Shown one piece after another: positions 6,671-61,638 of a DNA stretch of 64,000 nt. The notes under the pieces were generated by a model. The model ran no database searches. It saw nothing but the letters and a program-made list of their open reading frames with translations, and was not told where the DNA came from. The stretch lies in sequence record NC_054925.1. One strand, given 5' to 3'. Both the position numbers and the translations under genes were made by a program. This stretch comes from Escherichia phage vB_EcoM_NBG2. Each line of letters starts with the position of its first letter. Within the stretch, counting starts at the first letter, position 1.

Positions 6671-6725
6671 ATTAAAAAAGGCCCAACCAAAAAGGAAGGG
6701 CCAAAACTATAGACTAAAGGTCACA

Positions 6726-6893
6726 CTATAGCAAAAGTTGTGTTTCATTTAATTGTTCTTCCGAACTTTCTGAAACTGGTAGTTCTTTGATGTAATTATA
6801 GCAAGGCCCAGGATGTACAGGACCTTTGTCTGTTTCAACAACCAATGCAGAATCGATTGGAGTTTTACAGACAACACAAATCTTATCTGACAT
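6726..6893 (-). CDS. hypothetical small Cys/His protein (T4 uvsY.-2 position)
   Basis: Hand-derived 55-aa ORF MSDKICVVCK...HPGPCYNY; below the ORF-track length cutoff. Confidence 0.45.
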   Translation of the reverse strand: MSDKICVVCKTPIDSALVVETDKGPVHPGPCYNYIKELPVSESSEEQLNETQLLL

Positions 6894-7016
6894 GATTGTC
6901 TCCTCTAAATTATATATCTATTTATAACGCCATCTTAAAACGCATTTCTTGTACACGCTTTAAACATGCTTCCATTTCTGCTAAAAGTCTAAATACTTCT
7001 TTATAATTTGTCATAT

Positions 7017-7244
7017 TTACCCCATATCTCTCATATGCATATCAATGCCCATATCTTTAGAATAAAAATATTCATCAAGATATCCGGCAAATTTTCCTTT
7101 AATATAAAGTACATCTTCACCACACGGGTGGTCGGCCAGGATACGAATATCCTGACGCTTAAGATTATGCTTTTTCATTAAGAATTGAATTTCCGTTTCA
7201 AATTCTTCTTCATAATTAAAAGCATCATCAATGCTATATTTCAT
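7017..7244 (-). CDS. hypothetical protein (T4 uvsY.-1 position)
   Basis: 75-aa ORF immediately downstream of uvsY. Confidence 0.55.
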   Translation of the reverse strand: MKYSIDDAFNYEEEFETEIQFLMKKHNLKRQDIRILADHPCGEDVLYIKGKFAGYLDEYFYSKDMGIDMHMRDMG

Positions 7245-24385: not shown

Positions 24386-24399
24386 GTGCAATCTTTGGA

Positions 24400-24427
24400 A
24401 AATAAAAAAGGACTCCCGAAGGAGTCC
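24400..24427 (-). terminator. rho-independent terminator downstream of 30.9
   Basis: ggactcc-cgaa-ggagtcc hairpin followed by UUUUUU on the minus-strand transcript. Confidence 0.7.
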
Positions 24428-24432
24428 TCAAC

Positions 24433-24651
24433 TTATGCTTTCTGCTTACCAAAACGAGAAGCATCATCTCGAAGAACCGCACGTGCTCGGCGCATGATCT
24501 TCTCAACAGTTTGATTGATACGAGAGTTCGACCCACGCTTGTAACCAGCGCGTTTAGAATCACCAACTTTCTTTTCAACTGCTTTCTTTGCTTTAGCTTG
24601 TTTTGCCATTATAAATTCTCTTTTAAATGAAAATGCAGGACTTATTGGCAT
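24433..24651 (-). CDS. small basic protein (30.9 position); start may be the internal Met at 24609
   Basis: 72-aa ORF, or 58 aa from MAKQAKAKKAVEKK...; Lys/Arg-rich. Confidence 0.55.
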   Translation of the reverse strand: MPISPAFSFKREFIMAKQAKAKKAVEKKVGDSKRAGYKRGSNSRINQTVEKIMRRARAVLRDDASRFGKQKA

Positions 24652-25006
24652 TGCCTGCGCAAGCCCTCAAGGGGAACATAGGTTTTGTATATTTACCGAC
24701 AGGATAACCATAAACCTCGTCAACATACCTTATAGCTCTTATCTGTTGCACACCGTTAGCTTAAAGGTTCCGGGTTCGATTTCTCGAGGATAAGATATAT
24801 ACTGATGGATATATAGGCCTTGAGGCGTACTCCCGATTGGCCATCACCTCGGGGTAGCATGCACTTGCCGCTATAAGAATAACATTCAAGAGGTACACCA
24901 TAAAACTGCCGGGGTCTTAAAACTATAATGATTCGCAAATCATTAATCAGACAGTTCGATGGCTCCTCGATTTTAGCTCACACTAAGGCAGTGAATCTCC
25001 AATAAA
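24652..25006. other. unusually long GC-enriched non-coding gap between rIII and 30.9; candidate structured RNA
   Basis: About 355 nt with no convincing ORF; GC-rich blocks and several stem-loops including an 8-bp helix 24818-24825 with 24847-24854. Confidence 0.4.
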
Positions 25007-25255
25007 TTACTTCAGTGTTACCACAAAGTGACGAACTGCTTTTCGTGCGGCAGAAGCCAGAGGCTTAGCATATTTAAGTTCATCTTTTTCCTGGAGCTCA
25101 GCAGCTAATGCAGTTTGAGCAGGATTCAGATGTTTGAAATAACGCAGGATTTCAAGAGCTTCGGCTTCAACATCAATAGATGCGCCATAGTTTTCGTGAC
25201 CATTATTCCATGCGTTTCGTTGCAGTTCAAGAGCGTGTTGTAATTGTTTAATCAT
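25007..25255 (-). CDS. rIII: lysis inhibition accessory protein rIII
   Basis: 82 aa, MIKQLQHALELQRNAWNNGHENYG...; between 31 and 30.9 as in T4. Confidence 0.88.
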   Translation of the reverse strand: MIKQLQHALELQRNAWNNGHENYGASIDVEAEALEILRYFKHLNPAQTALAAELQEKDELKYAKPLASAARKAVRHFVVTLK

Positions 25256-25402: not shown

Positions 25403-25738
25403 TCACTTATAAAGACACGGAATAGCTTTATAATGACATGTTACGAATTTTTGTTTAATTTCTTTTGGCTGCTTAAGACCCAGAGCTACAAAAGGATGCG
25501 GAACGTTTCGAATTTGACCAACTGGAAGAGAAGTCAAATCACCAACTTCGCAGAAACCTTCAGGAACATCAGGACCAACAGAGTGAACTACACACAGTTC
25601 AGGAACTTCACCTTGAACACGTTTACCGATAATAAGTCCTGATTCTGTAACTTCTTCATCACCGGCTTGCGCAGGTTCAGAAACTAAAATAACATATTCA
25701 CCGACAGCACGAATTGGTAGCTGTTGTACTTCAGACAT
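25403..25738 (-). CDS. 31: co-chaperonin gp31 (GroES analogue)
   Basis: 111 aa, [38 protein letters not shown]... Confidence 0.93.
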
Positions 25739-26103: not shown

Positions 26104-26340
26104 TTATTTACCTATCACAGTTTTAATATGAGTTGTTCCACGTTCTTTAAGAGTGGAAAGCAATTTTTGGCATTTTTCTAAATCAGATTTCCAACTATAC
26201 GGTCTATCAATACAAACCCAGTTTGACTTATAATACTGCTTCCATTTAGAGAAAAAATACTTCTTATACTCTACAGCAAATGAAATGTTCTCGTTGGAAT
26301 AAGAACTAATTGCTGTGAGTTGTACCAAACGAAATTTCAT
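26104..26340 (-). CDS. hypothetical protein (31.2 position)
   Basis: 78-aa ORF. Confidence 0.55.
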   Translation of the reverse strand: MKFRLVQLTAISSYSNENISFAVEYKKYFFSKWKQYYKSNWVCIDRPYSWKSDLEKCQKLLSTLKERGTTHIKTVIGK

Positions 26341-26921
26341 TATTCACCACAGAATTCGTTGATATTTTCCCAGTTTAACTTATTCAAGTTTTTCTTAGGA
26401 ACATTGAACACTTCAATACCCGCATTTCGCAGAATATCATCCCAACCAGGTTTATTTTTATCGTATGTTTCGCAATAAACCAGCTTTTTAATTCCAGATT
26501 GAGCTATCGCTTTTGCACAATCTGGACAAGGAGAAAGTGTTACATACATAGTAGCACCTTCAATTGAAGAACCATTTCGTGCAGCAAACAAAATTGCATT
26601 TAGTTCAGCATGAATTTCATTTTTAGACGACCATTCAGAATGAGCGCTGCGGTGTTCTTTCGCCAAAACAAAACGATCAGTTGAACCAAATGATACGCAT
26701 TCAGGCTTATGACCTTGAATGATAGTATGTTTAGGCTTATTCAGCAACCAACCTTGCTCAGCAGCATAATCACAACAGTTCACACCACCTGCCGGAGAAC
26801 CGTTATATCCAGTAGAAATAATACGTCCATTCTTTTCAATTACTGCTCCTACCTTCCAGGAGCAACATTTTGATTCTTGTGATACTAAATATGCAATTTG
26901 AAGTACTGTACTCGCTTTCAT
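26340..26921 (-). CDS. cd: dCMP deaminase
   Basis: 193 aa; zinc-binding deaminase motifs HAELNAI and SPCPDCAKAI. Confidence 0.95.
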   Translation of the reverse strand: MKASTVLQIAYLVSQESKCCSWKVGAVIEKNGRIISTGYNGSPAGGVNCCDYAAEQGWLLNKPKHTIIQGHKPECVSFGSTDRFVLAKEHRSAHSEWSSKNEIHAELNAILFAARNGSSIEGATMYVTLSPCPDCAKAIAQSGIKKLVYCETYDKNKPGWDDILRNAGIEVFNVPKKNLNKLNWENINEFCGE

Positions 26922-60688: not shown

Positions 60689-60746
60689 ATTAATTTCCTC
60701 TAAATTATTTTCTACTCCAAGGCCGCATGAATACGCGGCCATTAAA

Positions 60747-60962
60747 TTAATCGTCGCAGTCGACGCTCAATTCCCAAAACTCTTCTACGGTATAAGTTTC
60801 AGTATCATTTTCAATACAGAAACGTTCATTACTGTTATTTGCTAAAGTAGCATTAACTGTCATTTTCTCGCTAGTGCTCTTAAGAGGTGAAATACGAATT
60901 AACTGATCACCGTTATCTAAACAAAAAATTTCACCGACTTTTACATCTTTAAAACTTTTCAT
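60747..60962 (-). CDS. hypothetical protein (ndd.1 position)
   Basis: 71-aa acidic ORF. Confidence 0.5.
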
Positions 60963-61077
60963 AATTCACCTCAAGGAGTATAAAATCCGAATGCAGTTGT
61001 TGACCATCCCATCCAATATGGGAAATTTGCACCAATGTAAAACATAAGAATATAAAACCAACCACTCAGCAAATTCA

Positions 61078-61296
61078 TCATTTTACACCATTCCAAATTG
61101 TTTCAACCACGGATTTTAAACCATTTTGATGAATGTCCATTCCGACTACTGCCATCAAATAGATTCCAACTACAACTGAACCTAAGGCAAAAATCAGCAT
61201 GAAAATGAATAAAGCCGGAAAAATATTATCGAAAAACCATTCAATAAATGTAAAAGCAGTGCTTTTACGCTTCATATTTTCCTCACATAAATCCAA
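61078..61296 (-). CDS. small membrane protein
   Basis: 72 aa with a hydrophobic core (FPALFIFMLIFALGSVVVGIYLMAVVG). Confidence 0.5.
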   Translation of the reverse strand: MDLCEENMKRKSTAFTFIEWFFDNIFPALFIFMLIFALGSVVVGIYLMAVVGMDIHQNGLKSVVETIWNGVK

Positions 61297-61396
61297 AGTA
61301 AGCGTTTAATACATCAATCATTAAAACGATTGGGAATATACTCAAAACTATTAGTATTATAACTACATTCCATATAGCTTTAACAATCTTTTTCAT
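61283..61396 (-). CDS. small membrane peptide (start moved downstream of promoter)
   Basis: MKKIVKAIWNVVIILIVLSIFPIVLMIDVLNAYFGFM, 37 aa; track ORF begins upstream of the predicted promoter. Confidence 0.4.
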   Translation of the reverse strand: MKKIVKAIWNVVIILIVLSIFPIVLMIDVLNAYFGFM

Positions 61397-61422
61397 TTTC
61401 TGTTCCTCCGTAGTTGATAGAG

Positions 61423-61475
61423 TAATAATACCACAGAGGAACAGTCTTGTAAACAACTTTTTAAAAATATTCGTA
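61423..61475 (-). promoter_or_regulatory. early-type promoter
   Basis: Minus strand GTTTACA-N14-TGGTATTAT. Confidence 0.45.
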
Positions 61476-61638
61476 ATAAATGTGAATACCAACTACTACC
61501 GCTGAAACCTGTGCAACCCACCACGCACAAGCAATAAGTACAGAATTCAAAATTTTCATAATAACCTCATCACAAAAGTAAATGTTAAACAAATTACTGG
61601 AATACTAATTAACCAAACAAAACACCACCACAGTGAAC

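Follow-up and report, generated by a model that had tools for sequence, protein, structure and literature searches.

The variable regions of T4-like phage genomes harbour short non-coding units such as the PeSL cassettes of T4-type phages, which are tied to the gain and loss of sequence (PMC2839356, PMC4122927) and consist of an early promoter plus one stem-loop (PMC4122927). T-even phages also possess small structured non-coding RNAs, e.g. rnaC and rnaD of T4 (species 1 and 2; 139 and 119 nucleotides, nt), which are located in the tRNA cluster and co-transcribed with their neighbours on the early strand. Here we describe a structured RNA element of 152 nt between rIII and gene 30.9 of Escherichia phage vB_EcoM_NBG2 (NC_054925.1), analysed within a stretch of 64,000 nt (hereafter the window) that is a segment of a Tequatrovirus (T4-like) genome. 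The intergenic gap spans 397 nt (24610-25006), and all genes around it are encoded on the minus strand. An original prediction, made from the sequence alone, had pointed out this gap and its elevated GC content, and both were borne out by mapping the gene ends and by base composition (41.9% GC for the gap, rising to 46.7% within its 152-nt core, versus 35.8% for the window). The accompanying claim that this is the largest non-coding gap in the window was not borne out by a mechanical map, in which 60743-61638 and 6671-7243 are longer stretches free of open reading frames (ORFs) of at least 80 amino acids.

Like the PeSL cassettes, the element is a short non-coding unit in a variable region of T4-like genomes and is tied to sequence gain and loss, but it is a multi-junction fold and not a single stem-loop beside a sigma-70-like early promoter. 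Scans for sigma-70, MotA-box and late promoters revealed no promoter-like site in the gap (24610-25006) upstream of the element, and none on the plus strand either. Given the lack of a promoter of its own in the gap, the element is presumably transcribed as part of the rIII-30.9 transcript, which would resemble the co-transcription of rnaC and rnaD. These two RNAs are also of similar size, but they are homologous to the element neither in sequence nor in structure: the covariance model R1, run with filters off on the T4 rnaC/rnaD locus (L059), gave no overlapping match, and T4 possesses rnaC and rnaD in its tRNA cluster while lacking the element of the rIII/30.9 locus.

Known families were searched as well. 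A scan against Rfam 15 (riboswitches, ribozymes, small RNAs, introns), which had been suggested along with the original prediction, matched no family inside the element at E-values up to 10 in the window or in three homologues (L041, L042 and L043), and ARAGORN found no tRNA or tmRNA genes in the whole window. A bacterial origin received no match from a pattern scan of 185,579 genomes or from blastn against E. coli genomes and against plasmids. Strings of the element's sequence had no match in the papers searched; it may still be listed, without a name, among the 10,000 candidate viral RNAs of one catalogue. With no detectable relative, the RNA family is, as far as these comparisons reach, new, and this claim covers the family and not its mechanism.

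Fold and strand of the element

Homologues were gathered by pattern scans of IMG/VR and metagenomes, by blastn and from rIII-anchored loci; two chance pattern matches (L006 and L039) were discarded, leaving 32 distinct versions from at least eight phage genera for the covariation alignment, and the kinship among them means that cell counts overstate the number of independent events. Standard pairs occupy 95.7% of the cells in this alignment and changes on both sides are seen in 28 of the 51 pairs; not one of 500 shuffles reached the observed value on any of five measures, and pairing fell to 27-41% in a control in which partner columns were slid by 1-3 positions. RNAalifold independently returned the same helices, the hand-refined model agrees with them, and the single-sequence centroid fold matches too. 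R1 has a single match in the 64-kb window, with 183.8 bits and at the element. The covariation that had been named as a check across T4-like genomes therefore supports the prediction that the gap holds a structured non-coding RNA and not a degraded ORF, and we regard the existence, strand and fold of this RNA as close to certain. The structured core of 152 nt lies on the sense strand of rIII and 30.9 and consists of the following parts:

24727..24878, minus strand, read 24878 -> 24727: whole element, from model R1, centroid fold and covariation
24870..24877, minus strand: 5' strand of the closing stem P1, CUUAUAGC, pairing with 24729-24736
24729..24736, minus strand: 3' strand of the closing stem P1, GCUAUAAG, from covariation
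24867..24869 with 24816-24818, minus strand: helix Pa, GGC/GCC, 100% paired
24859..24866, minus strand: 5' side of the conserved internal loop, AAGUGCAU, opposite CUCAAG at 24819-24824, nearly invariant unpaired columns
24849..24858, minus strand: 5' strand of P4, GCUACCCCGA, pairing with 24825-24836
24825..24836, minus strand: 3' strand of P4, UCGGGAGUACGC, with bulged A and C, from covariation
24839..24848, minus strand: hairpin P4b, GGU-GAUG-GCC, whose loop GAUG(G) at 24845-24841 kisses 24804-24808
24796..24815, minus strand: hairpin P3, 7 base pairs (bp), loop CCAUCA, of which 24808-24804 (CCAUC) pair with the P4b loop
24789..24795 with 24737-24743, minus strand: P2, UCUUAUC/GAUAAGA, 100% paired, 4 pairs changed on both sides
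24776..24787, minus strand: hairpin P5, UCGA-GAAA-UCGA, 100% paired, 3 of 4 pairs changed on both sides
24744..24775, minus strand: P6 (ACCCG / CGG-U-GU; 24775-24750) with a 15-nt loop, then the joining strand GCAACA

P1 leads into a perfect four-way junction of P1, Pa, P3 and P2 with zero unpaired bases, from which the Pa-P4-P4b arm, the P3 hairpin and the P2 arm extend, and the P2 arm opens into a three-way junction (P5, P6) that bears the most highly conserved unpaired bases. A covarying kissing loop joins the loops of P4b and P3, reading GAUGG:CCAUC in most versions, UAUGG:CCAUA in the Serratia clade and CAAUGA:UCAUUG in L043 and L037. The most divergent member, L043 of Yersinia phage fHe-Yen9-01 (64% identity), has whole stems replaced with the architecture kept: P4 is swapped entirely for CAUCAAU/AUUGAUG, Pa carries the compensatory form GGU/ACC (a G.U form, GGU/GCC, occurs in L058), and the P4b stem, GGY/GCY in most versions and GGA/UUC in L037, reads GAA/UUC. 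P4 otherwise comprises 10 bp (CCCGA/UCGGG plus extensions) and is 98% paired with five pairs changed on both sides, and P3 is 99.6% paired with four such pairs. In P1, seven of the eight pairs changed on both sides, as seen from CUUAUAGC/GCUAUAAG in the window, CAAACAGC/GCUGUUUG in L042 and UAAAC/GUUUA in Klebsiella phages; its outer pairs are ragged, and 78% of the cells pair.

The internal loop between Pa and P4 has the consensus AAGNGCAU opposite CUYAWG, and its invariance may come partly from pattern-based retrieval. The P6/joining region is the most conserved stretch of all (GCUAAYGGUGUGCAACAGAU), with one compensatory change in P6 (G-C to A-U in L043) and the remaining pairs invariant; as this stretch partly served as a search pattern, part of its invariance is circular. 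Further pseudoknots picked out by eye (GGCC/GGCC, GGYG/CGCC and GCAU/GUGC) are either not kept in L043 and L037 or made of invariant bases. A kink-turn in the Pa/P4 internal loop, likewise considered by eye, was rejected since the sequence misfits the consensus of that motif.

The strand can be read from the wobble pairs. With the ragged ends of P1 excluded, G.U occurs in 68 cells over 15 pairs and A.C in three cells, and since a plus-strand RNA would have A.C mismatches in place of these G.U pairs, the element is a minus-sense RNA, co-directional with rIII and 30.9. The G.U pairs of the P4b stem and the mostly GNRA-type loop of P5 (GAAA, GUAA) exist in the correct form on the minus strand only, and the outer pair of P5 is U.G in seven sequences, which would be A.C on the other strand. 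The core also folds better than shuffles on the minus strand (z -2.10) but not on the plus strand (z -0.96). The original prediction had placed the RNA on the plus strand, as an antisense of the rIII/30.x transcripts with an 8-bp helix. The two strings of this helix, CCTTGAGG (24818-24825) and CCTCGGGG (24847-24854), are indeed present; read on the plus strand they are complementary, two G.U pairs included, and they are 94% paired in the homologues, mostly through conservation. However, where columns vary the helix is broken in about half of the cells, it competes with and excludes the covarying P4, and it requires a strand that folds no better than its own shuffles, on which no promoter was found and on which the covariation-supported structure would acquire the said 68 mismatches, so that an antisense RNA is scarcely credible.

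Readings without any RNA fare little better. A decayed or tiny ORF, or a site that acts at the level of DNA (e.g. an origin, recombination or homing site), might be suggested by the ‘hypothetical protein’ annotated over the element in some GenBank records and by its clean gain and loss, as in a mobile DNA element, and an ORF at 24756-24938 (minus), noted in the original prediction, is present in the window. Yet every one of the 32 versions has at least one stop in each of the six frames, which leaves neither this ORF nor any other conserved, the lengths differ by 1-3 nt, and the substitutions are compensatory in stems and not spaced by codons. The ‘inverted repeat’ of P1 varies in sequence while its complementarity is kept, the opposite of a terminal repeat recognised by a protein, and the strand-asymmetric G.U pattern indicates a single-stranded molecule. 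We thus consider a non-RNA origin of the pattern very improbable, and the antisense, coding and DNA-level readings are effectively excluded.

Distribution, loss and transfer

About 1,000 phage records match the gap, with 178 covering at least 80% of it, and the element is carried by 399 records of the phage collection (nearly complete in 394). The named carrier genera are Tequatrovirus, Jiaodavirus, Karamvirus, Moonvirus, Muldoonvirus and Tegunavirus, to which JS98-like phages and unclassified contigs are added; individual carriers include LZ9, JS98, slur03, slur08, slur14 and pSs-1. In every T4-like case the element resides between rIII and 30.9, co-oriented with both and 76-165 nt upstream of the 30.9 start. 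Identity over ~135-150 nt of the core amounts to ~95% in Klebsiella Jiaodavirus phages, and over the element itself to 94% in Citrobacter phage Moon and 84-85% in Serratia phage PS2. At the DNA level the element is clearly more conserved than the flanking genes in two of five phages (92.9% versus 67-73% in Moon and 89.5% versus 67-85% in Klebsiella phage Kp311F) and within or below the range of the genes in the other three.

Whether T4 has a gap of this size was a point attached to the original prediction, and it does not: the T4 gap measures 244 nt, and in the alignment T4 lacks about 24727-24884, exactly the structured core. R1 detected no diverged copies in the gaps of T2, T4 and T6 or at other T4-like rIII loci without the element, and the element has been cleanly lost in T2, T4 and T6. 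The rIII/30.9 locus is a hotspot for small rearrangements. The T2 gap (L082 4355-4642) has an intermediate length of 288 nt, between the 244 nt of T4 and the 397 nt of the window, and contains no R1 match, and further deletion variants are seen in RB69-type and PP01-type records, which cover 53% and 43% of the gap, respectively.

A second and independent genomic context is found in the Grimontviridae phage PKM.Lu.22.1 (76 kb), which possesses one copy (L042). Precisely these ~150 nt are missing from its sister PKM.Hi.22.6, which shows 97.7% identity across the flanking region, and from every other 7-11-like phage, and the piece inserted in PKM.Lu.22.1 is the P1-bounded unit. The insert starts 7 nt past the stop codon of the gene ahead of it, and ~55 nt separate its other end from an intrinsic terminator (CCCCUCUUCGGAGGGGUUUU) that predates the insertion and is followed by an ECF sigma-factor gene, while neither a gp30.9 nor an rIII homologue was found in the PKM.Lu.22.1 genome. 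This copy differs by ~15% from every T4-like copy, with all helices kept via compensatory changes. The ends of the T4 deletion and of the Grimontviridae insertion fall only a few nt from P1, and the two genomic contexts share the same layout of stop codon, RNA and terminator-like hairpin. These sequence comparisons show the P1-bounded unit to have been copied into a single, unrelated phage of the Grimontviridae.

T2, T4 and T6 lack the element, T4 retains the leader hairpins of 30.9 without the core, and PKM.Lu.22.1 has the unit without gp30.9 and rIII. Together these patterns point to autonomy, and the element is probably a self-contained module and not a regulator tied to gene 30.9. The protein gp30.9 was also considered as a partner of the RNA and was rejected, since each occurs without the other: gp30.9 in T4 and the RNA in PKM.Lu.22.1.

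Neighbouring genes, leader hairpins and the H1 motif

The surroundings of the element comprise the following features:

25007..25255, minus strand: rIII, the upstream gene, from the ORF map and locus comparison
24433..24609, minus strand: gene 30.9, the downstream gene, encoding a basic protein of 58 amino acids that starts with MAKQ (phrog_1427; no match in Pfam)
25403..25738, minus strand: gp31
26340..26921, minus strand: cd
24900..24955, minus strand: stem-loop ACUGUC...GGCAGU followed by UUUUAU, containing the 7-bp hairpin 24927-24944, from the minimum free energy (MFE) fold of the flank and common to T4
24625..24677, minus strand: leader of 30.9 with hairpins A and B, both present in T4, which lacks the core
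24677-24658, minus strand: hairpin A (CCCCUUGAGGG-CUUGCG), conserved in all genera
24658-24625, minus strand: hairpin B (GCAGG...CCUGC, then AUUUUCAUUU), whose closing stem covaries across genera
24970..25000, minus strand: degenerate copy of the H1 motif, GGAGAUUCACUGCCUUAGUGUGAGCUAAAAU, just past the rIII stop and outside the core

Outside the core, neither flank of the gap outperforms shuffled sequence in folding (z of -0.35 and -0.40). This applies to the flank with the stem-loop at 24900..24955, so that the 7-bp hairpin proposed earlier is real as far as the sequence and the MFE fold are concerned, but does not stand out from shuffled sequence (z -0.35). A strong intrinsic terminator (GAGGACUCCUUCGGGAGUCCUUUUUUAU) follows gene 30.9 at 24429-24408 (minus), and an Rfam match to Atu_C8, a small RNA of Rhizobiales, at 24394-24477 (minus; 31.4 bits versus a threshold of 50) was dismissed as merely this terminator and no homologue. 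An ATG at 24651, upstream of gene 30.9 and in frame with it, would extend the protein to 72 amino acids; the T6 record uses this long form, which would traverse hairpin B, while T4 and most records use the form of 58 amino acids starting at 24609. Many GenBank records call a ‘hypothetical protein’ over the structured RNA and some name the rIII/30.9 region ‘1,4-alpha-glucan branching enzyme GH-13-type’, both of which are almost certainly annotation artefacts.

The leader of 30.9 shows patterns of its own. Hairpin A has a nearly invariant consensus across genera, GUWCCC(C)-loop-GGGGCUUG(C/A)G, and T4 has it too; in most phages it follows the RNA, but in L036/L041 and L037 it precedes it. The closing stems of hairpin B, at the end of the leader (24658..24610 in the window), differ completely from genus to genus and always pair (GCAGG/CCUGC, GGGAGC/GCUCCC, GGUGGAG/CUCCAC, GAGAG/CUCUC), with a U-rich tract after them, and in many phages a UCUCC...GGAAGA pairing could hide the ribosome-binding site. 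Hairpin B and this pairing look like attenuation or translational control of gene 30.9, a predicted function that would be independent of the new RNA. A near-identical insert of ~60 nt (GGGAGCUACAACCGAAAGAACUGUCGAAAGAAGUUGAACCUCGGAAGAACGUGCUCCC) with several GAAA-type loops is located inside hairpin B in Jiaodavirus, Muldoonvirus and Karamvirus (L002 2386-2475 and equivalents in L003, L005, L011 and L012); it is absent from the window and may be a second conserved RNA module.

The H1 motif has the consensus GGTGATWYGCTACCWWAAGTGC followed by T(A/T)GAAAAT, may form a hairpin YGC[UACCUUAAGU]GCR and is not in Rfam. It was recovered from 18 IMG/VR contigs of 5-342 kb, many of them unrelated phage contigs and one of them L015, and its loci comprise the window (25000..24970, minus), L015, L025, L032, L042, L043 and L060-L077. 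In T4-like phages it is positioned either directly behind the rIII stop or shortly ahead of the structured RNA, and in Grimontviridae beside the insertion site. Six of 17 new loci have tRNA genes on the same strand within ~700 nt, and in L061 the motif directly follows a near-consensus sigma-70 promoter. H1 may represent a processing or antitermination signal for untranslated RNA regions.

Possible functions and relation to known RNA classes

A complex and strongly constrained RNA is present in ~400 sequenced relatives of the much-studied phage T4, yet it is annotated nowhere and absent from T2, T4 and T6 themselves. RNAs with folds as complex as this one usually have a specific binding partner or act as catalysts, and the occurrence of the unit in an unrelated phage family suggests a portable function. 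In our preferred explanation, the element would act through its own fold and independently of its neighbours, would persist from, or be processed out of, the 3' untranslated region (UTR) of the upstream message as a compact and stable RNA, and would bind a candidate factor, protein or small molecule, that Enterobacterales hosts have in common, thereby fulfilling a dispensable accessory function in host manipulation or counter-defence. As a whole, this explanation seems to us finely balanced, a compromise across the claims of existence, modularity and binding; its last part, a binding or decoy mechanism in which a stable RNA, contained in a 3' UTR or arising from one, would bind a factor of the host or the phage, is put forward tentatively. 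It is possible, if somewhat short of balanced, that the element constitutes a new functional class of phage RNA, i.e. a horizontally transferable module of 152 nt acting as a new ribozyme or as a decoy (sponge) RNA. In the latter case, binding of a host protein or signalling molecule would aid virulent Enterobacterales phages, e.g. against host defence, and such an RNA would have been overlooked for decades because of its loss from T2, T4 and T6.

Several points weigh against this explanation. A discrete stable RNA separate from the mRNA is a prediction, and the position upstream of 30.9 in all T4-like phages makes a role in cis possible. The lone Grimontviridae insertion could be a neutral accident, and part of the similarity between genera could stem from recent exchange rather than selection. 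Retrieval of homologues by exact patterns renders part of the loop invariance circular; L043 and L041, which were found by BLAST, retain the pattern strings nonetheless.

The alternatives share the fold and differ in what it is for. Phage intergenic regions commonly contain small ribozymes, and a four-way junction or a kissing loop is used by the hairpin and Varkud satellite (VS) ribozymes. A new class of self-cleaving or otherwise catalytic RNA, in which the fold would position the conserved junction bases so as to cut the transcript and thereby split rIII from the 30.9 message or trim the 3' UTR, would fit the compact multi-junction fold with its loop-loop tertiary contact and strongly conserved unpaired bases, as well as the sporadic occurrence and the copying into an unrelated phage as a unit independent of its neighbours. 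We consider it unlikely, given that no ribozyme family of Rfam 15 matches at E-values up to 10, that 152 nt exceeds the size of most small self-cleavers and that a cleavage site is not inferable from the sequence.

Control of 30.9 in cis, by a riboswitch or protein-binding leader that works via the terminator-like hairpin B or a hairpin hiding the ribosome-binding site, draws on the aptamer-like architecture, as a conserved and covarying domain with a kissing loop and conserved junction bases is closed by P1 around a multi-way junction, and on its constant placement 76-165 nt before the 30.9 start and ahead of a covarying hairpin with a U-rich tract. A competing expression platform and a consistent class of downstream genes are missing from the picture, however: no downstream segment complementary to the variable 3' strand of P1 was seen by inspection, the downstream genes are 30.9 in one context and an ECF sigma factor in the other, and no known riboswitch class matches. 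T4 keeps the entire 30.9 leader without the element, with hairpin A, the covarying hairpin B and its U-rich tail and the possible ribosome-binding-site hairpin unchanged, and in PKM.Lu.22.1 the element precedes a pre-existing terminator and an unrelated sigma-factor gene in a genome without gp30.9, all of which makes such control improbable. We likewise give little credence to a passive element in cis that blocks exonucleases or guides RNase processing and so stabilises the rIII message or the 3' UTR around it. The location between a stop codon and a terminator-like hairpin in both contexts, always co-oriented with transcription, would suit it, but a simple barrier needs neither ~40 conserved unpaired bases nor a kissing loop and two junctions, and ordinary hairpins already flank the RNA.

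If the preferred explanation of an autonomous, factor-binding module or the ribozyme alternative applies, the element could represent a new aptamer class, an RNA-based counter-defence or a new ribozyme class. Nature provides pairs with and without it, i.e. LZ9 or JS98 versus T4 and PKM.Lu.22.1 versus PKM.Hi.22.6. At minimum, spurious gene calls can be corrected in many GenBank records.

Among known RNA classes, tRNAs and tRNA-like structures share the four-way junction and, on the plus strand, the string GGTTCGA. The T-loop-like motif of the original prediction (GGTTCGAT) is present as letters, but its bases are parts of the P5 and P6 stems on the other strand, and it is not a T-loop closed by a 5-bp stem; ARAGORN finds no tRNA or tmRNA, the arms of the element are far larger, and its loop-loop contact joins arms 2 and 3 and not the D and T loops. 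Riboswitch aptamers with a multi-way junction and a loop-loop contact include the SAM-I, lysine, cobalamin and purine classes. They are alike in P1, the multi-helix junction, the covarying loop-loop pairing, the conserved junction bases and a size of 100-170 nt, and differ in that the element has no Rfam riboswitch match, no P1-linked expression platform was seen and the downstream genes are not the same in its two contexts. The hairpin ribozyme has a four-way-junction form, and the VS ribozyme has ~150 nt and a kissing loop. While the element has no sequence or model similarity to these larger self-cleaving ribozymes and its catalysis is hypothetical, it resembles them in the four-way junction with interacting neighbouring arms, the kissing loop, the similar size and the independence from flanking genes.

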